64,000 nucleotides of DNA from an uncultured virus (IMG/VR IMGVR_UViG_3300030102_007457). Taxonomy: Duplodnaviria > Heunggongvirae > Uroviricota > Caudoviricetes. Positions 3,511 through 57,492 of the stretch are shown one piece after another. The translations under genes were made by a program, and so were the position numbers. Below the pieces are notes generated by a model that did not search any database, was not told where the DNA came from, and saw nothing but the letters and a program-made list of their open reading frames with translations. The stretch is from the IMG/VR virus record IMGVR_UViG_3300030102_007457, one strand, 5' to 3'. Position 1 is the first letter of the stretch, and the number at the start of each line of letters is the position of its first letter.

Positions 3511-3511
3511 T

Positions 3512-24963: not shown

Positions 24964-25596
<633 letters not shown>

Positions 25597-27967: not shown

Positions 27968-27978
27968 ACGGTGAAGAG

Positions 27979-42900: not shown

Positions 42901-44550
42901 AGCAACAAGGTAGAGAGGGACTGGTGGGGTGATACCGAAGGAAAGGCCATTACGAGGCTCTCAGAGGCCGCGCAGTACTATCTGGTGGATTGGTGGGGCA
43001 ACACCCGTGGAGAGGACGTAAGGCGTGCTCCAGTGCGTGGATTCGGTATCAGACCCGCATGGGACTGCGGAGACGCCTATGAGTACGACAGAACCAATGG
43101 TAGGACTCCCTTCCAGAGAGTCTACAATAACGGCAACCCAATCTTCAACCTCAAGAACGTCGTGAACTCGAGTGGTCAGGTCAGCGTTACCAGCAACTTC
43201 ACGATACCGAGGTTCGGTGGGCGCTTGAACTCGGATAACACCAACGTAGTCACCGTCCTCGTCGACGTCTTTGCCCCGACCAACGCTCTGAGAGTCGGCG
43301 ACATGGGGAACGGCAGGGGAGTCAGGTACCCCACCATGTTCAACGAGGATGTTCTCACCGACCTTTCCACCCCCGTCCACACCACTGGTCTCGTTCTCAG
43401 CCACAACACAGCGGAGCCCCTGTTCGGTGATGGTTTGATACGCCCCCGTAACGACGTACTGCAAGCCGATGAGGTCAAGCGTGGGATAAGCGCGAGGCTA
43501 GGTGTGGCCGAGGATGGGCTGCTCAAGCCCGAGGCTGTTGTGAGCGACAGGGTGGAGCAGGTCGTGGGAGACTCACCCCACAAGGACGTCATATCGAGGT
43601 CCTCACCGAGGATAGGAGTGGACGCTGAGAACTTCGAGGAGTTGGAGAAGTCCCATATCATCATCAACACAGAGGCGCACAGCCTTCACACGGACCGCAA
43701 CGTAGGACAGAGGACAGTGCTGCAGGGCGCCCACATGCCCGGAAATCAGAGCCTAGTCGACGCGAACTACAACTCACTCCTCTTCAGCGACACGAACGGC
43801 ACCACTAACTCCGTGCTGAAGTTCAGCCATACGTCGAACATGCGTCCTATGGGCGGGGACTACATACTCGAGGCCAGAGCGTTCGCTGGACTCTTCGACG
43901 ACACCGGATGGGGAGTGAACTCACTCACCGGGGCGAATAAGACCTCCAACCCGTATCAGGACGTAGTGACGTACAAAACCGACGGAGTTCGCAACAACGA
44001 CACCGACTCCACTGTGAGGTTCCTTCTGCGCCCCAACAGGGTCCTCGACCGATTCCACGTCGAGATGTACAGGCCGAAGACCACCGCCGTCAAGCAGTCG
44101 GATGGTGACTACTTCCAAGCCACGGCAGGTGGCAAGTACGGCATCTTCACCTACGAGGCGACTGGTAGGACACCCTCCAGCAACTTCCCTGACACACGCT
44201 CGACCCCGGACACCAAGGGACCATACGTACCCATAGTCTACATGAACACCAGCAACGGCGGCTCCGCTGACCAGATACCGACCTCCCACGGTCCCAACTT
44301 GGGAGGAGTGGCAGTGACCAACTTCGATACCTCGTTGACGAGCACCGTATGCAGGCTCATCACCTCAGAGAACACGTTACAACACCACAGGAGCGACGCA
44401 CCAAGGAGAAGGACAGCAGCCCAGACCGATGACCCGGTGAAACGCAAGGACTTCTCCATCAAGCCAAGATACAGCCAGACTCTGCACCCCAAGGGCCACA
44501 AGGGTGATGTGACGTTCGGCACCTCCGACCACAGTGGTGATGCTGCATGA
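27979..44550 (+). CDS. Giant 5523-aa virion protein with an N-terminal LamG/concanavalin-A-like domain
   Basis: Uninterrupted 16.6-kb ORF with a GGTGA RBS before ATG 27979. LamG-like motifs: FCIEAWVQP, LYINGEL, IFVGG..FRGIMEGL, LYRFEE. Confidence 0.85.
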   Translation: MAVLGRTNHAFFFDGVSDSIIIPQGRHTKLGDLTPDGKTMSTLLSSNPSGSQTSTLTSGLFGNQFCIEAWVQPDCGGIIVQKQDQFSLSIGNVDTPGPAVFTVTLDRPTGIEVVRLSTAVEETNGYDGTVYPPSTFGGPHDSYNRFNSSYDDATSLNINHRPLIHVVAALRSKDVVLYINGELMVKKALRDSGFTLNKSDHHIFVGGKGGQFRGIMEGLHLSNRFTDSLINRNSPLVDENTLVLYRFEEPISPIPGTYKTKHFGTLSGSDPHPSKTRITFANASDAATLASALTGKTVTTGDVDFTASPYSSGNYKVFDAHSNPGSTSTRSVPHVPYNLLINAGAINPNTKKPNQTPPERVRLLAIRDIHSSPYMVVSSIHLDFVHGTTDGLRTVLFANPRTTDTDDFFVVITGDILIDGGTGAPYQPLHYATQMIDRTGQMIIDEGPFERHGIVYSSRMSTTDVDTDNPFAVAWDTTVVDEKFKIGHSGRHTLNHVEGHAFMRLLPDPSEEIINQTIDAGVDTIDVYYDAALKGVENQIGINARVDILQNTGDFTINDITSTSEVNTIVSNGLPSDSKEIIAIGGSALDILPFMLRGPVPTELPSVAADIDSETRRYHLRPSRNSRVAMLHVPSLSTSNLAPFVEVHYNAIDITGKSMEATGDSGTATPYLMVEKTVPAGATPVGGGSTVYDVINTAIGNGNLTLHAPGGYIEVTMSNSDFNSVISKPNSLVGDTSEGYESDDELDERFTPFSEGAVNYTPRTQPNPIRTAQPNTPPKIVTASHTTSDTHESVFHRMLINTVSNSKQKTLTDKTIYSRREPSTVVSSPSNGEFDSGSTSSNTHIHEFFDVIDNHPITDSNISNMRIYLQPSDRRRVNQMAHLRSTLDDVTEPNITTLLYHMSRARVRSVEEKESNGVKSTVIQCRGLSEAAVSRTVSKTGAGSPDSHIVKEIEPNAPVVTVTLGGPGQGASDIKPTYDPSPLSRLPFSTQRGYHVRTESVAYSTAKVATLNVKPMNNESPNMASWGTYGFAKKGRVYLDDGASALYDAKNGTAFTFTDRFTSSCNVAGSAAITNIASGTSNLVVGMFINNGGFTNARIQSIDSSSQVTADTGTSVTATGVSITFTHNVNSSSQTQRYLDANGTNYGTFDNWLKATGRASNVTLGATADPITVVLSSEPDFGTESLSEDGSTVNDRMFQGGGKDVNHDYQLGTQYASTRALVEIPIFTKQVFDDDIAGVFPGPDNSLRLSVDATYTAHTWNPTPVGRRPGSPFNSDRAKHSAYALAVSKRNTGRRAFISKNIVVDGSNLQLHVSDITIFPSSSAISGAYTEKYQGIDNRPRFRRVFLESGAWALYTEANAGGYLVIPDKEWAMTRQFREEMKVGMPVFLSGGVPSESLTPIGDEPYTPSVAYENRSEHYHDTASVKTQGGNVDYGLRQYVSAVEFKAGPESNPHAARIVPKRATGVIATVRGFVDDAGPGGMGIAIVSLSSDEDFSTFPDFGFDSQTSLDFSVGDFLYEVELDDAGTTRRLHYYGRIRTADSHDVPANSIALGFYNPSAGSVPSYLTEGNRITLSRRSRAILNFDRSNINAVNNASILDEEYDAYCIEATGWTATVVSGNSTLTLASTATTPLTSNTLGPNLRKGDHIFIKDINGKLNSIGIVSKMTTRDLSGSTDYTVTLTGTSPSSLSGTLFISFSNAFVEDPDAILNRTWVYPYASGGFRNGDTVWSNMTLNNPHAMEGLFAKSRGVLNEARVWKGFTGGAATLSDEPRSSVPLENFLIGKTCIETAQNYAQHVNKTIEENYKALGLNASDAPTVAYVDPYLADDDHTRVLLYDVAHDREFIAFQDIFMQVQTSAKNAEIGWPRKFIKDGSLIDLAEYVATNTGGGPSWATTQIDVANGFPSQNPYLRSTQQSKFIESAYAHDVANRIGTDVLTPLSGSLPSSMAASSTSATSPSIYGKAHGHHSHTGYSLSGGLSDYALGDSSQMRTSDETVLPLFATIKHEFSRVRSFDDLFVTELKKLRKGTSSASLREPSTFHDTPDGTRVIPAFLALKGIRANTLDLTSHEESRLQHLPQWKQMEFIRRLDIDVGSLSLAEDVTDIESAAHEMVRIINQAGATKAKRVFDANTTGSAHDPAPWWDAGDAFESSDRGTHMGYLRAHIGRQVQDLDGNPGYTVVIHSTVPGASGRNFCVWLDNSKGQSPYRPQFIVGHGGRWRNFWGMPDEIENENMHPAPLPLNKHGRPFAPITTLHQLIDVELTGMDSVPSLDFSSRDNNTESPVLRAISNAVGGSGSNTVAADSFEPKSTDKSLVEGLRTGTNAVGRVNFGGLVKAGVPGWSPVAGQWGMGPKGNDSFARRYGNNTITTYGDYVPAADIKEEKFGTSPVYGIRMTDHRGKNHTVRLIYRQMGQPFANENTILPSTIEDEVCIFFDDRTNSQGGFTIGGHMVGQGDATGRMTGFSGDTEKVFYGGKWNPVAARDVAIKCDVTYLHASKTLEVVFADPYDTSSTLTHPDMLGYLGFPKKDGRVQITDSAGNGNTGLTLSYTSRSTNDASGEHRFQGIESEFTSDQSLTARLISPTMNWTTLITDELMAVATAAAINNHGINNPEGVVFDCRDMYAANGQTFGEMGVRADAIRIRAYNPDRFVKPIAQFFTASIHPDFGIKAAHLEYGEVEKTDAGSDGVWSFGTSRANTDGNIDAGRDIDCGYVPNTLLQVTSKANGPNTNTRTPLLIDSFNEEVNGTLIENWSRNLRGSQFTDHSGDHILPCVSNPMLRYTSVTTASQRIFIDTNTAQDELWGFLAPATLANGTVPSFGERKKIYLFPEASAVVEGHSGNDQGNVRNLKTLIWDNDTATSEWVTAFAGDGTSGDTTDTAYHTGVISHYGNLRSTEVCGLRSLGSVDSSPIHHFRGGRSSVDNNVPVFFGGGFSGVVLDVNDGTMNDYSEFYTHPYAAGPTGVSGIQNANEIVTSHAILDANAMLSFFPGTALLNQHRGSIMPPAHNRDNVLSPDLDNSTGSINSGHPNSAPYTAGVVVQKPSPLVLRFAHPTARYDDHITSTENKTTYIIFGPGQPFPFTQEVADSSNMTGADSVHPHTGAVLTVGNTWSKVPGNIVPNPIENQDGNYMPEDADYHSAYHAFHWRTPLNWEPATGKPLSLYSKIKQRPENGRMYGQYFNDDSISASFSASDLTIRRGMPLRHNPLLGFGIATGADMVWHMDGGYHPGGHWMDNQIAVNPSHPDGDTTLSVWGPTTQVHPTAFRVAGMLTTKVLGYTASEGQLVAADVDSEYIIVDATRCQNGEELATVVGAAINTFPGKGALKAMGGTHMPSMGNAMRQDRYGWVELETFSAYQISTDPYYVEYSSSTHTTQDKLEQIPACGWIKASTSGSADVPAWGCYHSREVFDDSGTWKVRFYLAPNRITNTEKFESYVTLNNGSSAVTSLAGGSGTGSIYVWSKAGVHRFNNVASTTRDHMCQAHFSGLVDAVDRTRPIGSVGWHGERYSYLNSLRVDTEGYGAGLGAWHSELGFSPYGSASSVLSGFGGIPTTAPLPRSPESTPPVDGLGSALMTYVNNPYSSYTYTTNSLSYSRKDTDDNAPHTLHAKPSHYDIADTFPEELVHPQGLFSKAFIVIACESEFALIAKKDRDSSTCVGDMLMVKGQGSPSLRYAGTTRWDERFHAQDRFIAPAHAGPNVEALIVNDTALETDSTDTGVYTFHTGSVTDLRLENATPDRAKTGDLVTDLDFSLGSKNLETGITAERNVVPEFYTSGSYTSDGDFPTDFWKGDILAYDLYKRSSALNFSTEHIVWKRMDGGNLSLPALNARGLGAVPWTTRVASSTAHTSGEKLYGNVRFSFETTNSAMMPVLQAQELSHPQLADKHDETIGGILTIPNEEMQFDEAVVVDDSGQEHTLQGGSPLGTVIRSFMVLKDRGVEGNAPALANSGNTPSMMVQLPDPDTIPGNIVVRSGFDPVQAYQTESFGSGGMLHADLSNTHTGHLFDSSVSSPRKGPTYEDHNWEHIDSIKNVSRTTGWERATGNNPLKLSYELHDRSLFFHVTKMGHSHTHRYPTTYTHANGVENQALNVSSWDASTSVLTVDATINARIYDASFGTKEVKDDRRFIRIFNPTTEESVVASYTGISGTTFTGIVGDVDFTAFIAAQTVANLDVVPSYYVPAGSARFFAAQRLRDHAEVSGASPDMAHTHYMDGNANTLAHTRYTKPQLTPMPFPRMGHHYVTPTMPMLPGHWAHPAYQSIFKRHLAERASTRGYRDRDLFDKEKTTTSVSSDISTDVTDYMSPLEPELFFSGVSAPVAPSDIHGGAFTLMFETKVKWDGYGVLGSRGHAGIINKAGGHTIVLEAANNYTLQAHFPDPKEVGAYQIVIQPNVHNTQLVGYHFYSSAQKLTGQQVNTVIGTEYVAGVGALVLYLSDATQADVRGCEIFINEVILDHDADFGKHFTNIPPLSLYNAFGIELTESPSFTRRAFPYTPMMSKATPGYTLNIPWWSILHSVAPDDGNSSGFRHISQYTPYNYYDFSRSTLGSIGNQLTIAGYPSIYPDIYSHILQNTSLSPTCTVISTSGSSPNITINVDDASLFPETPYYNHKLEYTDSNGKRQVATYTRRSGLQSGTVNEPKTFTGVTTTGTITTGMELRLTRAYDNLPAKDVFTDTNRSIITKILPQLKKGTKDTVGLHVPDAFLCMWHPNLGRPYTFYSDSSRTWGGTTTDRAVDAAQYNIMPDHFQTIHYHDVVYSMSHGPFDLRIKTPDDGKDGSVVAADSDHNQAGVNQAGTNIMLNRFWPCGTRGGPQSSRPDAFMQASASWIIPRAYASDDLYRWKDNSTIDASYSRGAGIVKEKLATASTHRLPYGYRIAVRQACNRPRWGLIPTRAILEDAMTGVSATTVGYRSGPLVQLETRAWTYAGGDTDSNSTFPNTYVGVMERLTNFSAMLGMDKYEFQVRHSDGRRMTRPFGSPVRTLRNSNKVERDWWGDTEGKAITRLSEAAQYYLVDWWGNTRGEDVRRAPVRGFGIRPAWDCGDAYEYDRTNGRTPFQRVYNNGNPIFNLKNVVNSSGQVSVTSNFTIPRFGGRLNSDNTNVVTVLVDVFAPTNALRVGDMGNGRGVRYPTMFNEDVLTDLSTPVHTTGLVLSHNTAEPLFGDGLIRPRNDVLQADEVKRGISARLGVAEDGLLKPEAVVSDRVEQVVGDSPHKDVISRSSPRIGVDAENFEELEKSHIIINTEAHSLHTDRNVGQRTVLQGAHMPGNQSLVDANYNSLLFSDTNGTTNSVLKFSHTSNMRPMGGDYILEARAFAGLFDDTGWGVNSLTGANKTSNPYQDVVTYKTDGVRNNDTDSTVRFLLRPNRVLDRFHVEMYRPKTTAVKQSDGDYFQATAGGKYGIFTYEATGRTPSSNFPDTRSTPDTKGPYVPIVYMNTSNGGSADQIPTSHGPNLGGVAVTNFDTSLTSTVCRLITSENTLQHHRSDAPRRRTAAQTDDPVKRKDFSIKPRYSQTLHPKGHKGDVTFGTSDHSGDAA

Positions 44551-45977
44551 CCTTGGTTGACGACGACGCTGGTCAGTTCAACGTCAGCCTAGATACTACC
44601 ATGAACGAAGTAAGGAAACCAGTGTTCGTGGACAATGCGCTCCACCACGCCCTCCTGTCCTCCCAGACAAGCAGCAAGAACAAGGTCACCATAGAGAAGC
44701 GCAACAACGCCACGTACACGGTAGCCTCATCGAACAGGTACACCTTGGCAGAGGGCAACAGCACAGTCCAGATGACTCACACCAGCCGTCCCGGTCACAA
44801 TTACGAAGGAGCCCCATTCTTCTCAGGCGAGAGGATATCAACCACCACCAAACCCTCGATGCTGCTCTATAACTCAAACCAGCCCAAGCAGCAGAGGCTC
44901 AAGGGCTCCTCCTTCGTCACCAGCGACAAGGGCATCACACTCAACCTACCCAACATGCAAGGCCTATCATTGAACGACATAGGCTATACTGGGGGTGATG
45001 TCCACTTAGGCCAGTCAATCGATGTCGGTCTCAGAACCACCGACCTAGCGATACAACTCGGTAGGGAACTGACTGGGACACTGACGTCAGTCAATCTGTC
45101 CCTACCGAGAAAGGTAACGTCCACGAATACCGATAGGAGGAAGCACAGTCTCAAGTTCTTCGCTCAGGACTTCAACCAGATACCGATTCTCCAAGCCATG
45201 AAATTCATCTCAAGACAGGACGGCAGAGTAACGTACTTCGATAGGTTCGGCAACCTACTCTTCGTTCCCTTCAATCTGTCAGAGGCCGGTAGAGCGCTAG
45301 ATGAGAACATCAGGCTAAGAGGGCAGCACACCAACCCAGTCGATAACATGGAGAACAGGGTCACCGTACAAGGGTCGCCGTTGGCCCTCAACCTCAAGGC
45401 CGAGGTCACCATGGACGACAGGGCGAGGCAGCAGGGCTCCTTCGACTTCGACATACAGCAGGCGAACCAACCGGTGTTCGATACCAGCATCAAGACTGAG
45501 GCGGCGGCTAGGAGGCTCGCTAGGATGATACTCAGAGCCAACAACATATCCTCCGGTGCCATTACCACCGAGGGTCACCCCAACGCTTGGGACTTGAGAC
45601 CCGGTGTGATGGTGGTCTTCAAGGGCAAGAGGCACGTCATCATGGAGGCCGTTCACAGATTCTCCGAGAAGGAGTCGGACTTCGTCTTCCTGTCACTAGA
45701 CACGGGCATAGAGGGAGTGCTGCAGGGGATAGCGGATGGTGGCATCAGCGCCGCCTACACTCAAGCGTACGACGAATCGGAGCAGGTGACGAGAGAGGAG
45801 ATAAGCCTCTTCGACGGCTTAGAAATAGTGATAACCCCGATAACAGTGACGAGAACAGTGTCGCCAAGCGGGTTCATCATCGGCAAGAACATGACGAGAA
45901 GCACGATTGGTCTAGGGAACGAGTCTATAGGAACCAAAAAGTCAGACTCACTTATCATGAGGAGTGATGACGTATGA
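44547..45977 (+). CDS. Putative baseplate hub/tail-tip protein
   Basis: YFDRFGNLLF, NRVTVQG, IKTEAAARRLARMIL and DLRPG patterns typical of hub proteins; ATGA overlaps at both ends. Confidence 0.65.
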   Translation: MTLVDDDAGQFNVSLDTTMNEVRKPVFVDNALHHALLSSQTSSKNKVTIEKRNNATYTVASSNRYTLAEGNSTVQMTHTSRPGHNYEGAPFFSGERISTTTKPSMLLYNSNQPKQQRLKGSSFVTSDKGITLNLPNMQGLSLNDIGYTGGDVHLGQSIDVGLRTTDLAIQLGRELTGTLTSVNLSLPRKVTSTNTDRRKHSLKFFAQDFNQIPILQAMKFISRQDGRVTYFDRFGNLLFVPFNLSEAGRALDENIRLRGQHTNPVDNMENRVTVQGSPLALNLKAEVTMDDRARQQGSFDFDIQQANQPVFDTSIKTEAAARRLARMILRANNISSGAITTEGHPNAWDLRPGVMVVFKGKRHVIMEAVHRFSEKESDFVFLSLDTGIEGVLQGIADGGISAAYTQAYDESEQVTREEISLFDGLEIVITPITVTRTVSPSGFIIGKNMTRSTIGLGNESIGTKKSDSLIMRSDDV

Positions 45978-46321
45978 CGGCCAGTGACACGTTGAAGAGG
46001 CTCATGATAGACACCATAGCCAGCAACATCAACGAGGTCGTGCTCGGCTTCGACGGTACTCCATCCACCTCGAGCGACGGCTCTGCTGGGAGACCAGCCA
46101 TCACCCTGACACCCACCGTGACGGTCATCGACGACGCCACTCTCCTCATCGAGGCAGATATTCCCACCAGCGAATCATTCGATGACTCCTTGAAGGAGAT
46201 ACACGTTCAACTACGTGACACCAATGGCAACTTCACTCCCATCACCCGCCACACCATACGACCTATCAGCAAGAACTCGACCAACGAGGTCAAAATACAA
46301 ATGCTAATCGAGGTGCGATAA
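45974..46321 (+). CDS. Putative fibre-attachment/collar protein
   Basis: LKEI...ITRHTIRPISKNSTNEVKIQ resembles tail-collar proteins; directly precedes the fibres. Confidence 0.55.
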   Translation: MTASDTLKRLMIDTIASNINEVVLGFDGTPSTSSDGSAGRPAITLTPTVTVIDDATLLIEADIPTSESFDDSLKEIHVQLRDTNGNFTPITRHTIRPISKNSTNEVKIQMLIEVR

Positions 46322-46322
46322 A

Positions 46323-48701
46323 ATGGCTAACTCACTGTCTGGACACACTGCTGGAACTAACGACTCACTGAAAGACGGGAGCCATATTCTGAGCCCTAGC
46401 CTGACCAATATCTACGAGGGTCTCAGGGGCAACGGCATCATGCTCCTGCAAGACGGGATAGCGGACAACAGCGACAGGAACACACCAGCCAATCTCCCCG
46501 GCGCCATGGTCGTCAAAGGCGGCACCTCCCACGTCTTGACAGTCACTGGTGGGCATGTTGTCATCGACAACGTCGTCTACTCGTTCGCCGGTGGACCGGG
46601 AGGCACTCAGGATGTGACAATCAACAAGGCGTCGAGCAACGTGCACAAGAACGGCTCGTTCACAGCGCTGACTAGTGGGCAGGAGTGCCTGTTTGTCGTA
46701 TACCTCTGCACCGACGGGGACGCACAGCACATCCACTTCGAGCAAGGGACAGCCGTGACGGCGTCCTCCGCCTACCCCACCACACCCTCCGGCTTCCTGT
46801 CTGACCCGGACTCATCACTCACCGTCAAGCAGAGTATCGTGCTCGCCACGCTCAGGGCCACGTTCAACGGGTCTGCGTCTGGTACCAACACAGGGACAGA
46901 CGGTCTTGATATTACCATCAGCCAAGTAAATGACAAGAGGCATTTCCTACGACCAAGCCCCCTCTACCTCGTGCCCATGACCGGTGACTCTAGCGCAAGC
47001 GTGAACTCTAACGTGGCCCTCGACAACTTCCACAGCAGTTCCTCCATCGAGCAGGGAGACTTCTCCGGCTCCGACTTGGGAGCCCTCTGGATGAGCAGGG
47101 GCCCTGATGACGCCGGCCAGTCAGAGACGAACGACGTGCTCTACTTCTCAGGTTATCAGGACGGTGCTAGGAGGACGTTCAGGCTCGGACCCGAAAAGTT
47201 GGTCACCGTGGTAGGTGGGGGGACCAAGACCTTCACCTTCGACGGTGGCACCGTCTTCAGGTTCAACACGAACACGGCGACCAATCTCAACCCATCTGGG
47301 ACTTTCCCCTCCGGGCACATGGTCATCATCTCCAACGCAAATTCAGCGGGACAGGCCAACCTCATCTTCGACACCACTGGCCTCAACGACACCATCACAC
47401 CCACCGAGTCGAGTATCTACGTCTATTCGGGGAGTAGTTGGGTCAGGGTCTTCGAGGGCTCGAGCGCTGCGACTGGCTCCAACGGTGTGTCGGGCAGGGT
47501 GCAACTCAGCGATGGCTCCGGCGCATTCACCAGCGCAGCCAACCTGTCATTCAACACGAGCAGCAACGAACTCACCGTGGATGGTAAACTAACGGTCACG
47601 GGGCTCATCGACCCCACCGGCCTAGAACTCACACCTCAGTCGAGCAACCCCGTTACCGGTGCGACGGCTGGCAACACCCTGTGGCTCGACAGCGGGAACT
47701 CGAACGCGCTCATGCAGGGGTCGACGAAGGTCCTTGTCCAAGGGGATGCCGACAACAGCGACTTCTCGCTCGTCGGCCTCAATGACACACCCGCCAACTT
47801 CACATCGGCGGCTGGTAAGTTACTCAACGTCAATTCAGGGGCCAACGCCGTCGAGTTCTCCACACTCTCATCGCTCCTCAACACCGACATGGGAGGCAAC
47901 TTCACCATAGGCAACCAGTCGAGTGACACGGCCACGTTCTCCGGCGACCTGACCGTATCGGGCAACCTCACTGTGAGCGGCACGACCACCACCATCAACA
48001 CGGATACGTTGAGCGTGGCAGACAACATAGTCGTCCTCAACAGCGATGCGACTGGTGCGGCAACCGCGAGTGCTGGAATCGAAATCGAGCGTGGCGACGA
48101 TACGAACGTCTTCTTCCAGTGGAACGAGACCAACGACAGGTGGCAGTTCAACAACCCGCTGTACGTCAATACCACGCTGAACGTCATCGGGACGACAACC
48201 GTGGCAGGGCTCGTCGGCACTGGCGACCTCCAGATAGACACAGACACCCTCTTCGTCGACGTCAGCGCAGACAGGGTGGGCATCAACCAAGCCACTCCAC
48301 TCGCACCACTCCACATAGGCAATACAGCCACGACTGTCGGGACTGGCTTCGGCAACGGACGGGCAACCACCTCGAGCAGCAGCACCGGCACCTCAATCGA
48401 TATCACGCTCTTCAACAGAGACAATTTCAGGGCGGCTAAGTTGCTGGTGGAAGTAGAGAACCAGACCGATGACATCAACGAAACGGCGGAAATGATTCTC
48501 ACCCACAACGGCACGGACTCGTCATCAGCGACGGGAGCGACCCTGACCACCTTCGGCGTGGTGCAATCGGACGTGAACCAAACCGTCCAAGCATCGTATG
48601 ATGCTGCTATAAGTGGTAGCAACGTTCAATTGGAAGTCACCCCTACGGCCAACAGTAAGGTAATCGTGGTCAAGGTGGCATGGCACGCTTTAACAAGGTG
48701 A
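46323..48701 (+). CDS. Tail fibre protein 1 (proximal)
   Basis: GDLTVSGNLTVSGTTTTINT and DNIVVLN...AGIEIERG fibre motifs; GAGGTG RBS. Confidence 0.8.
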   Translation: MANSLSGHTAGTNDSLKDGSHILSPSLTNIYEGLRGNGIMLLQDGIADNSDRNTPANLPGAMVVKGGTSHVLTVTGGHVVIDNVVYSFAGGPGGTQDVTINKASSNVHKNGSFTALTSGQECLFVVYLCTDGDAQHIHFEQGTAVTASSAYPTTPSGFLSDPDSSLTVKQSIVLATLRATFNGSASGTNTGTDGLDITISQVNDKRHFLRPSPLYLVPMTGDSSASVNSNVALDNFHSSSSIEQGDFSGSDLGALWMSRGPDDAGQSETNDVLYFSGYQDGARRTFRLGPEKLVTVVGGGTKTFTFDGGTVFRFNTNTATNLNPSGTFPSGHMVIISNANSAGQANLIFDTTGLNDTITPTESSIYVYSGSSWVRVFEGSSAATGSNGVSGRVQLSDGSGAFTSAANLSFNTSSNELTVDGKLTVTGLIDPTGLELTPQSSNPVTGATAGNTLWLDSGNSNALMQGSTKVLVQGDADNSDFSLVGLNDTPANFTSAAGKLLNVNSGANAVEFSTLSSLLNTDMGGNFTIGNQSSDTATFSGDLTVSGNLTVSGTTTTINTDTLSVADNIVVLNSDATGAATASAGIEIERGDDTNVFFQWNETNDRWQFNNPLYVNTTLNVIGTTTVAGLVGTGDLQIDTDTLFVDVSADRVGINQATPLAPLHIGNTATTVGTGFGNGRATTSSSSTGTSIDITLFNRDNFRAAKLLVEVENQTDDINETAEMILTHNGTDSSSATGATLTTFGVVQSDVNQTVQASYDAAISGSNVQLEVTPTANSKVIVVKVAWHALTR

Positions 48702-48705
48702 TAAC

Positions 48706-50763
48706 ATGGGTACAGAGCGCGATTTCAAGGTAAAGAAAGGACTGAGGGTAGAAGACGGCGACATAACGCTGGCCTCCGACCACAGCGTCTTCGCTGGTAC
48801 GTTCAACACGAACGTGACAGCAGCGAGGCTCACGCTGTCAGGCACGACGCTGGCTGCTCTTGGTGACAATAACGATATCAACATCAACATCAATCCGAAG
48901 AACAACGGTGCAGTGGTCATCGACGGCGCTGTGGAACTCGGTCACGCCAGTGACACGACGATAGCCAGAGCATCCAGCGGTGTCATCTCAGTGGAGGGCA
49001 GCAACGTCATAATGGCATCGAACGATGTGAGCGCTCTAACTGACTCGACATCAGCATCGATAGGCATCGGTACGATAGAACTCGGTCACGCCAGCGACAC
49101 CACGATAGCCCGCGATAGCGCAGGCGTGGTGACAATCGAGGGTGCTGAGATAAGGACGGGAACCGTTCCAGTGAACAAAGGAGGAACAGGCGCTACAACA
49201 CTCACGAGTGGTGGGATACTCCTTGGCTCTGGAACTGGCGCGATAACCGCCATGAGCGTTCTTGGTGACGGTGAGATGATTGTCGGTGACGGCACTACTG
49301 ACCCGGTTGCAGAGAGCGGTGCTACTTTGAGAACATCCATTGGCGTGGGAACGGGAGACAGCCCCGCATTCACCAACCTCACCCTTTCCGGTGACCTAGT
49401 GGTCACAGGCGACCTCACAGTCAACGGTGCTACCACCACCATATCAACGACGAACTCAGTCGTCGAGGACTCCTTGATTGAACTCAACACTGGTGCTACC
49501 AGCAACTCAAACGACTTGGGATTCATATTCGAGCGTGGTAGTACTGGCAACAATGCCGCCATCATATGGGACGAGAGCGCAACTAAGTTCGCAATGGGGA
49601 CTACAACCAATACAGGTGCGGACACTGGCAACCTCACCGTAGCCACAGGCACTCTGGTGGCCAACATCGAGGGGAACTTGACGGGAACCATACAAACTGC
49701 CTCCCAGACTAACATAACAGGCATAGGTACCATATCCACCGGTACTTGGAACGCCACTGACATAGCAGTCGCACACGGTGGTACTGGTGCGAGCACTGAG
49801 TCAGCCGCTAGGACCAACTTAGGACTGGCGATAGGAAGCGACGTACAGGCACATGATGCCCAACTCGATGCTATCGCCGCTCTAGCGACGACTGATGGTG
49901 GAGTCATCATAGGCAACGGGTCCACCTTCGTGCTGGAGAGCGGAGTCACTCTGAGGAACTCACTTAATCTTGGTATCAGTGACTCACCCCGATTCACAGG
50001 CATAGAGTTGGGAGCACCAGCCGACACCACCCTGACTAGGGCAAGCGCTGGTGACATGAACATAGAGGGCAACATCGTCTACCGCGCTGGTGGTACCAAC
50101 GTGGCCATCGCCGATGGTGGTACGAATGCCGACAACGTATCTGACGCTAGGGACAACCTAGGTCTGACCATAGGAACGAACGTGCAGGCCTACGACGCTC
50201 AACTCGCCACGCTGGCTGGATACACCTCCACGCAGATAGGCTTCCTCAACGTCAGCACCGCTGGTACCGTAGAGGCCAGCAAGTCCGTGGTCGTCGATGC
50301 GAACAAGGACATAGGGAGTTTCCGCAACCTCACAGCCACTGGGGCGTTGAAGTCCGATGGGATGCAACTCACAGGTGGTGCGAACTCCGCTGCTGACTCA
50401 GGCACCGTCGTCGCAGAGTTCGACGTCTCCGAGGCACAGGTGGCCACGAACAGTGCGGCCACCATAGCCAGTTACGAGTTCGGCACCTACAGGACGGCCA
50501 AGTTCCTCGTTCAGATAGGCAGGGTGGATTCGAGCGAGCAGTTTGATTGTATGGAAATCCTCGTCACCTACGATGGTGGCTCAGCACCCAGCGGTGATAG
50601 TGACATCTTTATGACAACGTACGGGTACATTACCACGGGAGCGAGCGACCTTGGGACGTTCAACGCAGTGAAGGGTAGCAGTACCATCGACCTGCAGTTC
50701 ACCCCCGCAACGTCAGGAGGAACATACGAATACAGAGTGGTAAAATCACTCCTAATCAAGTGA
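48706..50763 (+). CDS. Tail fibre protein 2
   Basis: Fibre motifs GGTGA...ARTNLGL and GDLTVNG; ELGHASDTTIAR repeats; AGGTGA RBS. Confidence 0.8.
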   Translation: MGTERDFKVKKGLRVEDGDITLASDHSVFAGTFNTNVTAARLTLSGTTLAALGDNNDINININPKNNGAVVIDGAVELGHASDTTIARASSGVISVEGSNVIMASNDVSALTDSTSASIGIGTIELGHASDTTIARDSAGVVTIEGAEIRTGTVPVNKGGTGATTLTSGGILLGSGTGAITAMSVLGDGEMIVGDGTTDPVAESGATLRTSIGVGTGDSPAFTNLTLSGDLVVTGDLTVNGATTTISTTNSVVEDSLIELNTGATSNSNDLGFIFERGSTGNNAAIIWDESATKFAMGTTTNTGADTGNLTVATGTLVANIEGNLTGTIQTASQTNITGIGTISTGTWNATDIAVAHGGTGASTESAARTNLGLAIGSDVQAHDAQLDAIAALATTDGGVIIGNGSTFVLESGVTLRNSLNLGISDSPRFTGIELGAPADTTLTRASAGDMNIEGNIVYRAGGTNVAIADGGTNADNVSDARDNLGLTIGTNVQAYDAQLATLAGYTSTQIGFLNVSTAGTVEASKSVVVDANKDIGSFRNLTATGALKSDGMQLTGGANSAADSGTVVAEFDVSEAQVATNSAATIASYEFGTYRTAKFLVQIGRVDSSEQFDCMEILVTYDGGSAPSGDSDIFMTTYGYITTGASDLGTFNAVKGSSTIDLQFTPATSGGTYEYRVVKSLLIK

Positions 50764-50788
50764 TGGACAGTGAAATCATGGTGATACA

Positions 50789-53700
50789 ATGGCAACGAAC
50801 AGAGACTTCAAAGTAAAAAACGGATTAATAGTAGCAGAAGGAATTACTGCTTCTACTGAGATACAAGGCAATCAATTCAGATTATCCAGTGCGTCGAATA
50901 GAATAGGTCTTCCAGCAACAAACGAGGTTGCTGTATTCACAAACGGCAGCGAGAGAATACGCTTTGATTCTTCAGGTAATGTCGGAATAGGCACTACAAG
51001 CCCCGGACACAAGTTAGAGGTCAATGGCTCCATTGCTGCTACAACAGTAACAACCGGAGGAACACAAGACCTGACTCTAGATACAAACGGAGGAACAAAC
51101 TCCGGTTCGATAAAGATAGTAGATGGTGCAAATGGAAACATAGAGTTGGATAACAATGGTTCGGGGCAAGTGGTATTCAAGGGTAATTCAACGAAGGGTT
51201 CCGGTCAATTTGTACTAAACTGTGAAGTCAACACTCATGGTATAACCATCAAAGGGCCACCACATTCTGCGGGAGCATCATACACATTGACATTACCTGA
51301 TGATGATGGCAACTCTAACCAAGTTCTAAAGACGGATGGTTCTGGTAATCTCAGTTGGGTTGACCAAAGTAGTGGTGGTTCTCCCGGTGGTTCAGATACT
51401 CAGGTGCAATACAACAACGGTGGCTCCTTCGGCGGTATTGCAGGATTCACATTCACTGACACATCAGGCTCAGAGCAGTTCCTATTCTCCGATACCAGCG
51501 ATACCGCACTTGTGAAAATAGTTCAGGAAGGAACAGGAGCAGCATTTCAGGTGCATGATGCTGGCAGCGACACAAGCATCTTCCAAGTCAATCAAGTAGG
51601 AACAGTGGCAATAGGATTCAATACTTCAGGCGGTGGAGGATATGGTAAACTACAGGTGAATGGGACTAACTATTCAACCGCTCACGGTGCAGAGGCAGGA
51701 AGTGCCGGTAGTCCATCATTCCAATTCGTAGGCGACCAAAACACAGGTATGTTCAGTGGAGGCACTGACATCCTAGGTTTCTCCACAGGTGGTACTGAGA
51801 GATTGGCTATTGGAGCGGCTGGTGAGATACTAATCGGTGGAACTGCCGCTGGAACTAGTGGTCAGGTATTGACTTCAGGTGGCTCCGGCGCAGCAGTAAC
51901 ATGGGAGGATGCCGGAGGTGGTGGCGGCTCTCCTGCTGGTTCTGATACGTTTATTCAGTATAATAACGGAGGTTCCTTCGGTGCTACTACACTTGCATTT
52001 GACGATACAGCAGGTTCAGAGCAGATTCTACTTGATGACACAAGTGATGTTGCTTTGATGAAGATAGTACAAAGAGGAACAGGTAGTTCATTCGAGGTAC
52101 ATGACCAAGCATCTGATTCCACTGTATTCCAAGTTAGTTCTTCAGGAGGAACAAGTATAGGGTTAGGTGCTGGTTCTGGTGCTGGTTCTGATTTATTATT
52201 CGTACAGGGAAGGTCATCGAGTCAGATATGGACAGCATCAACAGATGGCAGTGCATCTGCTCCTGTGTTTACTCGTAGAACTGATTTGAACACTGGTATG
52301 TATTTCGTGGGTTCTGATAATATCGGCTTCACAACAGGTGGCACTCTAAGAGCGGATATCAGCGATAGTGGATTATTGCTAGGTGGTTCAGGTGCTAGAG
52401 TCACAACAATACTAGATGAAGATAACATGGCTACTAACTCTGCCACTGCTCTAGCAACTCAGCAATCGATTAAGGCTTATGTCGATGCCAACTCAGGAGG
52501 CGGTGGCGGGAGTGATACTGATGTCAACGTCAGTAACCTAACTGCTAGATTACCGCAAATCACTGAGAGTGTCACGATAGGTGATGCGACAGATGTGACT
52601 GTCACCACTTCAGGTGATTTGACCGTGACTGGTGACTTGAACGTATCAGAAATAGTAGACCCCACAGGCACTGGCAACCTGAAACTACGAGCAGGTGGTA
52701 GTACCATCAACATCCTAGATGGTGGGGTAGCAAATCATATCAATATCACTCCTGCTAGTGGTCGTTTGAATCTATTCGCAGAGACAATTGCTATTGGTGA
52801 GGCAGATTCAACAATAACAACCGGAGGAGCGTATGATTTAACAATAAATACCAACACTGGTACTAACTCAGGAGCAATCAAGATTTTCGATGGTGCTAAT
52901 GGGAATATAACACTCACACCAAATGGCACAGGGAATGTCTCTATTGGAAATTTCACATTCGATGCTGACCAGTCAGTAGGGAGTGGTCAAGACAATTACG
53001 TTCTGACATACGACCACTCAGATGGTCAAATCAGTTTGGAGGCAGCAGCAGGTGGTGGTGGCGGTTCTCCTGCTGGTTCAGACACTTTCATTCAATACAA
53101 TAATGGTGGTTCTTTTGGTGCTACTACACTTGCTTACACCGACACATCAGGTGCAGAACAATACAAGATAGACATATCATCAAGTGAAACCCCGTTTGTC
53201 ATAGTGCAGACTGGTGCTGGAAATTCGTTTGAAGTACATGATGCTGCTGACCCTGATAATAACAGATTTCAGATTTCTAACGCAGGAAATGTCACAATAA
53301 AGGCTTTGAATGGCGGGGGTTGGGGTGAAGCGTTATATGTCGGTGGAAATATAATAAGTAGTAGATATAAGGCTGAACAAAGTTCTGCTTCTGCCCCTGC
53401 ATATGTCAGTGCGTATGATACAAACACAGGAATGCTTTTCCCTGCTGCTGATAACCTAGGCTTCTCAACAGGTGGAACTGAAAGATTTAGATTTGGCTCT
53501 AGTGGTGAGATACTAATCGGTGGAACTGCCGCTGGAACTAGTGGTCAGGTATTGACTTCAGGTGGCTCCGGTGCAGCAGTAACATGGGAGGATGCCGGAG
53601 GTGGCGGTGGCGGTGCATCACTCGCCAACGGTGTAAATAACAGAGTAGTCACTGCAACAGGTGCAAGTGGTCTGAATGGAGAAGCCAATCTGATATTCGA

Positions 53701-55945
53701 TGGAAGCAAATTAGGGATAGGAACCTCAAGTCCGGGCGCGTCTCTTCATGTATCAAAGACATTGACAGGAAATGATGCTACTACTTTAGCAGGTGCAGAG
53801 GTATTCAAGGTTGATACAGTAGATGATGGCTCATCATCCGATGGCCCCGGATTCCAAATCAGGCTTGAGTCAACAAACGACCACAATGGAGCCAACTACG
53901 AGGTTGCCATAATAGGAGATGGTGGAGGACAAAGAAAGAAGAACATCTTCGGAAACTACGGTTTCCATGAGTATTGGCTCGCTGGCAACGCTGATGGAAA
54001 GAAGCCGATAGCGTATCTGAAAGCAGATGGTAGCACAAGTGCGGGTGCAACCCAATACGGTGTGTTCCGCCTCTTATCCACGGCTACTGCTTGGGCAGCA
54101 AACAACTTCAACCCAAGTGGAGAGACAACTGCATTACAACTCAATGCAGGTGGAAACTCATACTTCAATGGTGGAAATGTCGGTATAGGCACTGCGAGTC
54201 CAACTGGTGTTTTGCATGTCACTGCTGCCGATACTTCGGCAGAGGCATTCCGTGTCGATATAACAGATAGTGACAGCACTGCTGACTCCACGCCATTCGT
54301 TGTTGATGGTAATGGAAGGGTCGGCATAGGCACTGCATCCCCCGATACTGGGGCAGCCCTTACGCTCAATGGCGATGGAACTTCATATGAGGGATTAGTG
54401 TTCCAAGTTGCAGGTTCAAAGAAATTCACAATGTCTTCAGACGGTTCTGCCTTTTACATGGACAGTTCGATAAATACAGGCAACGTCAATATGAGAGTAA
54501 GGGACTCAGGTGGAAATCTAAGACCTGTTTTGGGATTAGAGGGCGATGGTTTCAGAACAGCAATCGGACACAACGGAACAAGCGGCTCTAGCCTCAGTCC
54601 TCAAAACACATTACAAGTCAACGTAGGTGACGAGAATGGAGTTCAAGACAAGGACGATGGTATTCTTCTTCTCAATAGCGACCTCTCAATCGCAGCGAAT
54701 GATATGATTGGTGGTATAGGTTTCGCCACTAGAGATGGAAACATACCAAGCAGCGTCAGAGAAGCAGCATGTGCGATTGTCGCTAGAGCGAGGGAAGACC
54801 ACACTACTACCGAGAAGGGGGGATACATGGAGTTCTTATATTCACCAGCGGGCAAGGATGATGATACAGTCAGCAGCATCGGCATGACACTCATTGAAGG
54901 TAAGTTAGCCGTCAACAACGGTGGGTTGCATCCATTGACCACGATGACGCTATATCATAGTGGCTCGGACTTCAATGACGGTCTTACTATCATAAGAAAT
55001 GACACAAGTGTCTCTGATGGCGATTTGCTTGGAGCGATTGGTTTTGATGCTAAGGATGGCAATGCTCCCTCAAGAGCGACAGAGGCATCTGCTGGTATTG
55101 CTGCTTTTGCTGCTGAAGACCACAGCACAGGTGACAAGGGTGGAGACTTGGCATTCTTCACATCACCCATTGACCAAGATGATGATACTGCTTCTGTTGA
55201 GAGAATGAGAATAACATCTGAGGGTAAGGTCATTATCGGTGATACTCCAAATTTCACTTCACAGCATGATAGTATATCTAAATTCACAATCCAAGGAACA
55301 GATGCGGGAATGCTCATAGAGAAGCACGATGATTCTGCAAGTGGTGGGCCTACTCTTTCACTTTACAGATACTCAGCATCAGAGGCCGATGGTGACTTGA
55401 TTGGGCAGATAAACTTCAGAGGTGAGGGGTCAACAGGAAACCCATCAACATACATGGCTATCAGAACTGAGATAGAAGACACAACTGAGGGAACGAAAGA
55501 CGGTTCATTGATTATTAGAGGATTGGTTAACAACTCACAAACTGATTTTGCTGAGATAAACTCAGCAGGTCTTACGCTAAATCAAGGGGCATACAACACA
55601 GGCAATGTATCTAAAGATGCTAATACAGTATCAGGTTCTAGTTTGGCTGATGGAAGTTCTGTGACGTTATTCACTGTTCCAGCGACAACAAGAGGATTCA
55701 AAGCGACTATATTCTTCAAGGACACAAGCAACACCGAGTATCAGATAGAGGAAATAATGGGATATAATACAGGTTCAGGTGTTGACTTCACATCATTCGG
55801 TCAAGTCTTCAGCGGTGCTGCTGCTATCGGTTCCTTGGATGCCACAGACAGCAGCGGCACAACTCTAATTAAATTCACAAATGGTCAAGGAGGCGCGATT
55901 AACTATCAAGCGACCATTAGTGTGACACATATGGACTTAAGTTGA
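50789..55945 (+). CDS. Tail fibre protein 3 (1718 aa, modular, AT-rich)
   Basis: GNVGIGTTSP, ERMRITSEG, QYNNGGSFG and TLTLPDDDG...QVLKTDGSGNLSW fibre motifs. Confidence 0.85.
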   Translation: MATNRDFKVKNGLIVAEGITASTEIQGNQFRLSSASNRIGLPATNEVAVFTNGSERIRFDSSGNVGIGTTSPGHKLEVNGSIAATTVTTGGTQDLTLDTNGGTNSGSIKIVDGANGNIELDNNGSGQVVFKGNSTKGSGQFVLNCEVNTHGITIKGPPHSAGASYTLTLPDDDGNSNQVLKTDGSGNLSWVDQSSGGSPGGSDTQVQYNNGGSFGGIAGFTFTDTSGSEQFLFSDTSDTALVKIVQEGTGAAFQVHDAGSDTSIFQVNQVGTVAIGFNTSGGGGYGKLQVNGTNYSTAHGAEAGSAGSPSFQFVGDQNTGMFSGGTDILGFSTGGTERLAIGAAGEILIGGTAAGTSGQVLTSGGSGAAVTWEDAGGGGGSPAGSDTFIQYNNGGSFGATTLAFDDTAGSEQILLDDTSDVALMKIVQRGTGSSFEVHDQASDSTVFQVSSSGGTSIGLGAGSGAGSDLLFVQGRSSSQIWTASTDGSASAPVFTRRTDLNTGMYFVGSDNIGFTTGGTLRADISDSGLLLGGSGARVTTILDEDNMATNSATALATQQSIKAYVDANSGGGGGSDTDVNVSNLTARLPQITESVTIGDATDVTVTTSGDLTVTGDLNVSEIVDPTGTGNLKLRAGGSTINILDGGVANHINITPASGRLNLFAETIAIGEADSTITTGGAYDLTINTNTGTNSGAIKIFDGANGNITLTPNGTGNVSIGNFTFDADQSVGSGQDNYVLTYDHSDGQISLEAAAGGGGGSPAGSDTFIQYNNGGSFGATTLAYTDTSGAEQYKIDISSSETPFVIVQTGAGNSFEVHDAADPDNNRFQISNAGNVTIKALNGGGWGEALYVGGNIISSRYKAEQSSASAPAYVSAYDTNTGMLFPAADNLGFSTGGTERFRFGSSGEILIGGTAAGTSGQVLTSGGSGAAVTWEDAGGGGGGASLANGVNNRVVTATGASGLNGEANLIFDGSKLGIGTSSPGASLHVSKTLTGNDATTLAGAEVFKVDTVDDGSSSDGPGFQIRLESTNDHNGANYEVAIIGDGGGQRKKNIFGNYGFHEYWLAGNADGKKPIAYLKADGSTSAGATQYGVFRLLSTATAWAANNFNPSGETTALQLNAGGNSYFNGGNVGIGTASPTGVLHVTAADTSAEAFRVDITDSDSTADSTPFVVDGNGRVGIGTASPDTGAALTLNGDGTSYEGLVFQVAGSKKFTMSSDGSAFYMDSSINTGNVNMRVRDSGGNLRPVLGLEGDGFRTAIGHNGTSGSSLSPQNTLQVNVGDENGVQDKDDGILLLNSDLSIAANDMIGGIGFATRDGNIPSSVREAACAIVARAREDHTTTEKGGYMEFLYSPAGKDDDTVSSIGMTLIEGKLAVNNGGLHPLTTMTLYHSGSDFNDGLTIIRNDTSVSDGDLLGAIGFDAKDGNAPSRATEASAGIAAFAAEDHSTGDKGGDLAFFTSPIDQDDDTASVERMRITSEGKVIIGDTPNFTSQHDSISKFTIQGTDAGMLIEKHDDSASGGPTLSLYRYSASEADGDLIGQINFRGEGSTGNPSTYMAIRTEIEDTTEGTKDGSLIIRGLVNNSQTDFAEINSAGLTLNQGAYNTGNVSKDANTVSGSSLADGSSVTLFTVPATTRGFKATIFFKDTSNTEYQIEEIMGYNTGSGVDFTSFGQVFSGAAAIGSLDATDSSGTTLIKFTNGQGGAINYQATISVTHMDLS
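51820..53604 (+). repeat. 102-bp direct repeat (51820-51921 and 53503-53604) with one mismatch, inside fibre 3
   Basis: Aligned by eye; single synonymous C/T difference at 51889/53572. Confidence 0.9.
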
Positions 55946-55954
55946 GGTGATTGA

Positions 55955-56695
55955 ATGGGAAGACAGCCTTTTAGACAGATGAAAACAAATGCAACAGCCA
56001 AATCAGCAGATGAGTCTGCAAGTGTGACATTACCGGGTCATGGAGTGAACATAAGCAGAACACCTGATTCAAATGTCTCAAGCATACAAAATGCCATGAT
56101 ACCAGTGTCGCCGGTAAGTGGAACAAACAGTTTCGGGTCCACTGACTTCTTCTATTTCGCTAGAAGAATTTGGTTTGTCCCAATGTATTCAGCGTGTGGT
56201 GGGGTTATTGAGCATCTGATACCATACAGCGCAGGTGAGAATGGTGTTGCAGATACAGATGACTGGAAGTTTGCCATATACGATAATGGCAATGATGGAT
56301 TACCTAAGACATTGATATCGAATACAATGCAATGGACTCCCGATAGCAGTTACAACCCGACCTATCTCGATGTCACTAACACAAGTGGTGGAGAACTGAC
56401 TCTAGATGCAGACAGATGGTACTGGTGGGCTGCTTTGGGTGCAAGTACCAGCAATGGAGGTAATATCCCAATGGGTTCTTATTCCATGAATCGCGGTTAT
56501 CAAACACAAGTCCCTTGTGCAAGCGGAACACCATTTGGGGTATTATATTGGAGTGCAGGAAGTCGGACATCATTCGATACACCGTTGAATATGGTTGCCA
56601 ACAGCACTGAGTTCAGGTCAATGAGCGAGAACAACACACCTCGTTGGTTCTTCCAATACAAGATAGAGAGCGATTTCGGATTCAAGGGAGCGTGA
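55955..56695 (+). CDS. Aromatic-rich beta protein, candidate distal receptor-binding protein
   Basis: GAGGTGA RBS; lies between the fibres and the fibre chaperone. Confidence 0.6.
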   Translation: MGRQPFRQMKTNATAKSADESASVTLPGHGVNISRTPDSNVSSIQNAMIPVSPVSGTNSFGSTDFFYFARRIWFVPMYSACGGVIEHLIPYSAGENGVADTDDWKFAIYDNGNDGLPKTLISNTMQWTPDSSYNPTYLDVTNTSGGELTLDADRWYWWAALGASTSNGGNIPMGSYSMNRGYQTQVPCASGTPFGVLYWSAGSRTSFDTPLNMVANSTEFRSMSENNTPRWFFQYKIESDFGFKGA

Positions 56696-56699
56696 TAGT

Positions 56700-56978
56700 A
56701 TGCCGGGTAGAGAGTGGTTCTTACAGCAGAAGAAGGATGAGAACGGCGAGTGGCAATTCACTAGGGTTCTCACAGAGGAAGAGGCTAGAGAGCAACTTAG
56801 AATGATAAGACAGAGTTTCTTGGAAGAGACTGACATGTGGACATACATGGATAGATGGAATTCATTGACCGATGCTCAACAAGCAGAATTAACAACATAC
56901 AGACAAGCATTGAGGGATATACCATCATGTGATGACCCGTTCAATCCACCATTTCCAAGTAAGCCAAGTTGGGTATGA
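56700..56978 (+). CDS. Tail fibre assembly chaperone
   Basis: LRMIRQSFLEETD...YRQALRDIP...FPSKP matches the phage fibre assembly chaperone pattern. Confidence 0.85.
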   Translation: MPGREWFLQQKKDENGEWQFTRVLTEEEAREQLRMIRQSFLEETDMWTYMDRWNSLTDAQQAELTTYRQALRDIPSCDDPFNPPFPSKPSWV

Positions 56979-56995
56979 TTAACAACCCACACCTG

Positions 56996-57315: not shown

Positions 57316-57359
57316 AGTGTAGTTTCTGCACCGGCTTGTAAATTAACATTGTGTATAGA

Positions 57360-57453: not shown

Positions 57454-57492
57454 GTTGACACCATAACTATTTTGCACGTAGCCAATGATGCC

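Follow-up and report, generated by a model that had tools for sequence, protein, structure and literature searches.

The fibre genes analyzed here lie on the + strand of a 64,000-nucleotide (nt) stretch of DNA from an uncultured virus of the Caudoviricetes (IMG/VR record IMGVR_UViG_3300030102_007457), the whole of which is referred to as the window. Three consecutive fibre genes, F1, F2 and F3, are followed by a smaller gene, G4, and by a gene for a chaperone (Table 1). Judged from sequence comparisons, the products of the three fibre genes probably clip together end to end by repeated use of a coaxial joint of the type formed by gp9 and gp34 of phage T4. F1, F2 and F3 would follow one another as segments of a single long tail fibre or fibre complex, each ending in a gp9-like beta-sandwich domain, presumably trimeric, on which an N-terminal peptide of ~20 residues of the next gene product would dock; domain and peptide are called socket and plug below after these proposed roles. 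F1 would carry F2 and F2 would carry F3, while F3, which ends in a diverged socket subtype, would pair with G4 instead. Subtype-specific pairs of plug and socket would fix the order of assembly and would keep F2, which has both ends, from self-polymerising. The preliminary description of this DNA, prepared from its letters alone, had proposed that the N-terminal peptide of each fibre plugs into the C-terminal domain of the previous one. This proposal gains support from the kinship of the domain with gp9, from the adjacency of plug and socket at 45 of 45 gene starts and from the order of parts along fibre gene rows in other lineages, patterns from which we infer the physical contact, the coaxial geometry, the stoichiometry or trimer state, the pair specificity and the role of G4.

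The fibres end in one domain related to T4 gp9

The related C-terminal domains that the preliminary description had seen in all three fibres proved to be copies of one homologous domain of ~110 amino acids (aa). A leave-out profile built from 14 C-termini of the F2 family, with F1 and F3 excluded, was searched against three targets and recovered both the F1 copy (residues 683-779, 31.7 bits, E 1.9e-11) and the F3 copy (residues 1610-1716, 30.5 bits, E 4.3e-11), while it did not find G4 (-4.2 bits). By this profile evidence the domains of F1, F2 and F3 are homologous, beyond chance; pairwise BLASTP among the fibres did not detect the likeness of the C-terminal domains.

The domain is related to the C-terminal domain of T4 gp9. 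Residues 683-773 of F1 match positions 409-496 of phrog_967 ('baseplate wedge tail fiber protein connector', E 3.1e-6), the family to which T4 gp9 itself belongs (E 3.1e-149). Of 20 short domain-bearing representatives, 10 match the same C-terminal part of this family; F2 and F3 are linked to gp9 only via the family profile. When a hidden Markov model (HMM) of the domain (at least 158 sequences) was compared with all six-frame open reading frames (ORFs) of 64 kb of T4, the gp9 C-terminal domain was found with E 1.2e-4 (16.2 bits), the next best T4 match having E 0.39. The AlphaFold 2 (AF2) model of the domain is an eight-stranded antiparallel beta-sandwich (predicted local distance difference test, pLDDT, 80.2; predicted template modelling score, pTM, 0.75) for which Foldseek ranked T4 gp9 (1qex_A) first, with E 2e-5 and 23% identity. 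The domain profile had no match among PDB sequences (best E 0.23). No match to PF07880 or any other Pfam family was found in F1, F2 or F3, and phrog_967 was matched over the C-terminal part only. Because gp9's N-terminal and middle domains are lacking, F1-F3 are not gp9 orthologues; on these family searches they are fibre proteins bearing just the gp9 socket domain.

In the T4 literature gp9 is a 'socket protein' that carries the long tail fibre in a coaxial position, and PMC10253068 has this fibre attached 'via the N-terminus of gp34'; PDB entries 9f4a and 9x3r contain homologues of both proteins. In 1.84 billion proteins the domain family comprised 754 representative clusters at E <= 0.001. 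Among the 150 best representatives, with protein lengths of 62-3331 aa, the domain is nearly always at the extreme C-terminus.

F2 and F3 share an N-terminal peptide

F2 and F3 begin almost identically, as the preliminary description had noted, with 11 of the first 16 residues identical. The same codon is used at just 5 of these 11 residues and no direct DNA repeat was present at the F1-F2 and F2-F3 junctions, so that the likeness of the peptides is held at the protein level by selection and does not stem from a recent DNA duplication. The plug consensus spans ~20 residues and reads [RK][DN]F[KR]V[KQ]xGLxVxxGD, with [RK]DFKVKxGLxVxxGD as the form found in the window. The N-terminus of F1 is different, as comparison of the sequences confirmed; this type of N-terminus (SGHT...SPS.TN.YEG) is conserved in 7 homologues and is presumed to be the baseplate anchor.

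The start of T4 gp34 (..REFRAEDGL.., KREFRAEDGLDAGGD) bears some resemblance to the plug, and T-even relatives of gp34 keep the pattern KFRAxxGLDAxG[DE]K. Residues 6-19 of gp34 ranked first among the T4 frames searched with a plug HMM and lie at the same distance from the initial methionine, but with E 0.25. To us this likeness is a lead in keeping with the model, short of established homology. A word-based search for gp34 homologues yielded close T-even relatives only (67-98% identity), while the N-terminal 70 aa of F2 found nothing in the phage collection (tblastn) and nothing meaningful among PDB sequences.

Genes with a plug directly follow genes with a socket

The preliminary description had suggested surveying viral genomes for peptide-starting genes behind genes that end in the domain. 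Two degenerate DNA patterns were scanned over IMG/VR, and this order was found at 45 of 45 unique gene starts. The pattern M[GA]Tx[KR..]DF[KR..]VK occurred at 38 unique sites on 36 contigs, all of them starts of long ORFs and all behind a gene ending in the domain, with gaps of 4-117 nt; the upstream domain was found by the domain HMM in 37 cases (E <= 1e-21) and by an alignment profile in the remaining one (L198, E 1.4e-7). A looser pattern (MTERDF.V) gave ten matches, seven of which were real fibre gene starts, each behind a socket gene, while none of the three chance matches (short or internal frames) was. The 45 junctions form 13 clusters at <60% socket identity and the adjacency rule holds in every one. 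The base rate was taken from 364 non-redundant junctions in 158 fibre loci, which had been fetched via the central repeats and were unselected for either motif: a terminal socket lay upstream at 8 of these junctions, 2 of which were followed by a plug.

Among 42 listed matches the plug gene itself carried a socket in 12, was complete without one in 19 and was cut by the locus end in 11. Read in the other direction, of 52 unique terminal sockets whose downstream gene could be seen, all from selected loci, 40 were followed by a plug-type gene (including one loose match and three mis-started variants), eight by a G4-type gene, three by a third type of start, described below for locus L140, and one by none of these. 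On the socket tree the labels for partner type changed 11 times compared with a shuffled mean of 30.7, a figure that is descriptive only, as kin share labels.

The order of parts along fibre gene rows

Six maps could be read to the last fibre gene (G002-G005, L205/L219 and L004). In each, the first gene has a socket without a plug, middle genes have both, and the last has a plug without a socket. Records G002 and G003 encode an F1-like protein of 811/793 aa (socket), a protein of 1169/1158 aa starting with MGTIKDFRVKQGL (plug and socket) and one of 913/798 aa starting LGT[NK]KDF.VK.GL (plug only). The contig L205/L219 follows with 889 aa (socket), 782 aa (plug and socket) and 1146 aa (plug only). 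Shorter rows consist of a 1525-aa socket protein and a 915-aa protein with a plug only (G004) or of a 421-aa adaptor, which has a gp37-like start as well as a socket, and a 1709-aa protein with a plug only (G005). In G001 the row runs from F1 (socket) via F2 (plug and socket) to an F3 with a plug and an unrelated C-terminus. The longest row, in G006, comprises proteins of 989 aa (socket), 1068 aa (..KFFYVHNGL, socket), 1573 aa (..KNFFVHNGL, socket) and at least 1542 aa (MATNNDFKVKNGL), the last of which has the plug and ends at the record edge. The first gene of a row never carried a plug. A first gene without a plug and a last gene without a socket are what a series joined end to end predicts, while parallel attachment to a baseplate or a receptor-binding role of the domain does not predict them.

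A related arrangement was seen in a far more distant lineage (L086), where a 223-aa adaptor comparable in size to gp9 carries a socket and the next two fibres both start with a diverged plug, MANEFIARKGL. The adaptor and the first of these fibres (866 aa) end in a diverged form of the domain. Compared by hhalign, this form was matched to the socket at 91.9% (E 6.9e-7), and its two copies matched one another at 96.2% (E 2.3e-9).

A second plug type was noticed in L140 (172-8994), in which three consecutive genes start MA[QK]Q..N.G..(A)NDGTGD.., each behind a socket gene; the third of them (603 aa) is without a socket. A single fibre of 2268 aa in L018 was considered as a clean fusion of F1, F2 and F3 and rejected, since what it has in common with them is limited to the distal part of F3 type (82% over the last 239 aa) and, for F1 and F2, to a short shaft motif.

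The distal cassette

The suggestion in the preliminary description that the gene behind F3 might cap the chain gains support from its genomic position. G4-type genes stood behind an F3-type socket in all nine loci with a visible upstream gene (the window, L015, L018, L166-L169, L171 and L173), L170 and L172 being outside the count because their upstream gene lies beyond the record, and the domains partnered with G4 form one clade (8 rows, support 100/99). The MGRxPFR start is invariant in nine G4 homologues whose overall identity falls to 16-23%; an invariant start combined with a variable body is the pattern typical of a docking N-terminus. G4 had no match in Pfam or PHROG families, its matches in the protein atlas were limited to weak leads (Mtd_N, lectin-like, scores <= 0.85) and viral clusters without a name, and its AF2 model was unusable (pLDDT 44.8). 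The gene behind it matches PF16778 (Phage_tail_APC; E 1.2e-8, 35 bits where the curated cut-off is 26.6) as well as six PHROG families for tail fibre assembly, including phrog_8716, 4912 and 188. In all eight fetched loci (L166-L173) the ORF after G4 is a gene of ~90 aa, which agrees with the window gene in position. G4 is probably the distal tip, made with the help of this Tfa-like chaperone.

Compared with the window, G001, the nearest record (27% of sampled words in common), has an F3 shaft that is 81% identical over 478 residues, while other sequences stand in place of the last ~120 F3 residues, of G4 and of the chaperone; the sockets of F1 (105/110 residues) and F2 (106/110 residues) are nearly unchanged. 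F3 socket, G4 and chaperone would form an exchangeable distal cassette, and its exchange between close relatives makes it the likely host-recognition part. From 0.55-0.59 upstream, the G+C content goes down to 0.45-0.47 for the greater part of F3, G4 and the chaperone (region 50001-58000), with about 0.45-0.46 between 52 and 56 kb; this drop fits the gain of a distal fibre cassette by recombination.

In several relatives the fibre module is closed by a conserved small gene of 104-118 aa with the start MALRI.Y.T..GI.C..AHC..; no matching ORF was found at that place in the window.

Alternative explanations

Several observations weigh against an end-to-end joint. The likeness of the plug to gp34 is weak, as N-termini of the gp34 family scored 4.5-6.6 bits, a level reached or passed by 3 of 173 decoy fibre N-termini. 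The Pfam model of the gp9 C-terminal domain, PF23618 (T4_gp9_10_C), which covers gp9 residues 169-272 with E 1.1e-42, was not reported for the F1 domain even at E <= 10, so that the window domain is a distant relative outside Pfam's current model. A loose plug-like start in L049 (..NNFRVKSGL..) stands without a socket gene, be it upstream or elsewhere in the 30-kb fragment (17% complete). Adjacent regions are co-inherited, and part of the co-occurrence and of the match between clade and partner reflects descent. The domain is moreover far commoner than the plug: the strict plug motif was present at the own N-terminus of 13 of 149 representatives and absent in 136, others starting with gp37-like (..IKLKRS..GELA.N..) or Mtd_N-like (..LQFRRG..) motifs. 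It also occurs in tandem, with seven copies in a protein of L140 (1417-5373) and three in one of L139 (6046-9351), which makes a pure one-to-one socket insufficient as an explanation. These tandem copies may be multi-socket branch points or shaft modules. The wide spread of the domain, its tandem copies, the other plug starts and its use in tailspikes point to a general end-module and not to a spurious pairing; in our view a trimeric end-module of general use would have been taken on as the socket for several types of plug.

The same breadth of occurrence, in tandem arrays and at the very C-terminal end of proteins whose N-termini are of many other kinds, would also suit a domain that is only a trimerisation or folding cap or a glycan-binding tip, with the plugs of F2 and F3 anchored separately to a common baseplate or adaptor site so that the fibres would be parallel or branched. 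Published interpretations lean this way. PMC10253068 reads the gp9-like C-terminus of RaK2 gp529 as an aid to trimerisation, and a preprint (10.64898/2026.05.12.724579) counts the ECOD group 'gp9 C-terminal domain-related' as one of the C-terminal modules with which receptor-binding proteins bind carbohydrates. Such a role leaves unexplained why all 45 plug genes stand behind a socket gene when the base rate is 8 in 364, as well as why the first gene of a row is without a plug and the last without the domain. A receptor-binding tip would further be expected to vary most, whereas the domains of F1 and F2 are near-invariant between close relatives in which the distal cassette has been swapped. 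We consider this explanation unlikely.

Less plausible still, and in our estimate improbable, is that plug and socket make no contact with each other and that their pairing is a footprint of descent or recombination, marking a conserved cassette boundary for the exchange of fibre modules. The fibre modules are indeed mosaic, with G+C falling from 0.58 to 0.45 along the row and the distal cassette replaced in G001, and the clustering of the socket tree by partner type is what kinship alone would also give. A boundary kept for recombination is at odds with the lack of a DNA repeat at the junctions and with the 5 of 11 shared codons, which indicate that it is the peptide, not a recombination sequence, that is under selection. 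The rule is also intact in all 13 socket clusters of <60% identity, and the socket is homologous to a domain known to hold a fibre N-terminus. Finally, that the resemblances are due to chance or to the low complexity of Ser/Thr/Gly-rich fibres, an explanation favoured by the compositional bias of fibre proteins and by the failure of pairwise BLASTP, has a negligible probability and is refuted by the leave-out profile, which placed both other domains correctly at E about 1e-11, by the confident AF2 fold and by the 754 clusters matched. An end-to-end joint remains the reading that we prefer.

Genes of the window and likely virus type

The genes and quoted peptides of the preliminary description were all found at the positions given there, and the coordinates of the fibre row and of other features are collected in Table 1. 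The start of F2 follows the F1 stop by 4 nt, and a GGTGAT-like ribosome-binding site precedes each of the starts of F1, F2, F3 and G4. F2 has a tail fibre PHROG match and central repeats that are common to 4161 relatives; F3 likewise matches tail fibre PHROGs. Internal DNA repeats in F3 (51733-53611), among them two 164-nt copies of 88% identity at a spacing of 1683 nt and a 113-nt pair at a spacing of 1137 nt, indicate a shaft made of repeated units of about 180-560 aa. The 115-aa gene in front of F1 had no match in Pfam or PHROG. In G002 and G003 its 114-aa homologue, with the same ...LKRLMIDTIASNINE... start, is the gene immediately in front of the F1-like one, and ORFs in a place equivalent to that of the 476-aa gene precede this pair. 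The 476-aa gene, whose sole PHROG match is weak and to a family of unknown function, probably encodes a component on the baseplate side.

Table 1. Positions of the fibre module, its parts and other features. Coordinates refer to the window unless another locus is named.
Feature	Position	Strand	Remarks
Large terminase	3491-5002	+	family search
Portal	7377-9149	+	family search
Prohead protease	16331-17701	+	family search
HK97-type capsid protein	17725-18855	+	family search
476-aa gene, upstream of fibre row	44547..45977	+	just before 115-aa gene and F1
115-aa conserved small gene	45974..46321	+	directly 5' of F1
F1, fibre segment 1, 792 aa	46323..48701	+	own N-terminus, C-terminal socket
F1 C-terminal gp9-like beta-sandwich domain	48354..48698	+	last 115 aa; proposed F2 socket
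F2, fibre segment 2, 685 aa	48706..50763	+	plug, repeat shaft and socket
F2 N-terminal plug peptide	48706..48771	+	MGTERDFKVKKGL..GD..
F2 C-terminal gp9-like domain	50416..50760	+	proposed F3 socket; alignment, family HMM
F3, fibre segment 3, 1718 aa	50789..55945	+	plug, long repeat shaft and diverged socket
F3 N-terminal plug peptide	50789..50854	+	MATNRDFKVKNGL...
F3 C-terminal gp9-like domain, diverged subtype	55598..55942	+	proposed G4 socket
G4, 246 aa	55955..56695	+	MGRxPFR N-terminus; proposed distal tip/cap
Tfa-like tail fibre assembly chaperone, 92 aa	56700..56978	+	
MALRI-type small gene	L167:6947-7261; L170:1269-1583; L173:2071-2415; L212:10616-10942; L213 revcomp 10684-11040		

On the + strand, family searches identified the terminase, portal, protease and HK97-type capsid genes of a head-tail structural module, and on the - strand ERCC4 nuclease and primase-like genes. 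Several further ORFs were noticed around the structural genes. An ORF of 406 aa with an HNH endonuclease domain lies between terminase and portal (6175-7395, +; phrog_5046, E 2.5e-9), and a 210-aa protein with a SAP DNA-binding motif is encoded within the tail module (24964-25596, +; PF02037, E 2.7e-10). An ORF of 1866 aa between the portal region and the prohead protease (10683-16283, +) had no Pfam or PHROG match. A giant ORF of 5528 aa with a TTG start (27964-44550, +) fills the space between the tail genes and the fibre row and is kept in relatives L003 and L004, whose 5'-open frames exceed 2000 aa. Directly past the fibre module a group II (thermosome-type) chaperonin is encoded (57666-59168, -; Cpn60_TCP1, E 5e-129), and G001 has the same 500-aa ORF.

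According to Philosof et al. (PMC5434244), thermosome subunits are encoded by magrovirus groups A and D. The combination of structural module, thermosome and replication-type genes fits the magroviruses of Marine Group II archaea, so that the virus is likely magrovirus-like and its host probably an archaeon; this assignment rests on gene content set against published descriptions of magroviruses. In those magrovirus papers that were searched for it, the word 'fiber' was not found.

Implications

Should such a joint exist, sequence alone would tell how many fibre segments there are, in what order they stand and how they connect. This would hold for uncultured viruses as well, among them the probable viruses of Marine Group II archaea, whose virions have not been seen. 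The gp9/gp34 connector of T4 would become a general, reusable coupling module and not a single baseplate joint. More tentatively, fibre architecture in marine viruses could follow a readable 'plug and socket grammar' in which each of several gp9-derived socket subtypes would accept one plug type (MGT..DF.VK, MAT..DF.VK, MGRxPFR or MAQ..N.G..NDGTGD). Gene order would in that case spell segment order, self-polymerisation would be prevented, tandem sockets would be branch points and host range would shift by the swapping of distal plug-bearing cassettes. Such a grammar would cover a large set of marine viruses, including abundant archaeal ones. No published account of serial gp9-type fibre joints was found in a search that covered the literature outside subscription journals.

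Comparison with known systems

The closest known system is the joint between gp9 and gp34 of T4, which would here be used in series. Both systems have a C-terminal eight-stranded beta-sandwich, homologous in sequence and fold, and in both the partner would be the N-terminus of a long fibre protein, as deduced for the window from gene order and motifs; the plug also resembles the gp34 start, weakly, in residues and in distance from the methionine. They differ in that gp9 is a small baseplate protein, whereas the window sockets sit at the C-termini of segments of 685-1718 aa and would be used two to three times in series. Both the N-terminal and the middle domain of gp9 (PF07880) are absent from the window fibres, T4 genes 9 and 34 are ~63 kb apart while socket and plug genes of the window are adjacent, and the host of the window virus is probably an archaeon.

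In branched receptor-binding complexes such as TSP1-4 of CBA120, conserved N-terminal modules dock on a small trimeric T4 gp10-like domain, and the docking domains lie near the N-terminus of the anchor protein, giving side branches. The modular and exchangeable docking of conserved N-terminal modules is common to these complexes and the proposed fibre, while the window domain is C-terminal and the order of its genes indicates a linear series. No gp10 structure was among the fold matches listed for the domain model. The tailspikes RaK2 gp529, those of the Acinetobacter phages Fri1, AM24 and vB_ApiP_P1 and Klebsiella Kp9 gp42 have the same fold at the extreme C-terminus. There it is the terminal domain of enzymes and is read as a trimerisation or glycan-binding module, unlike in the window, and the accessible parts of that literature held no report of a downstream gene matching the plug.

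The long tail fibre of T4, built from gp34, gp35, gp36 and gp37, likewise is one long fibre of separately made proteins in gene order. The two chains are of similar total length by their genes (2908 aa in T4, 3195 aa in the window) and both have a chaperone gene at the distal end. T4 uses other joints between its segments, whereas the window virus would repeat a single joint type derived from gp9 and gp34.

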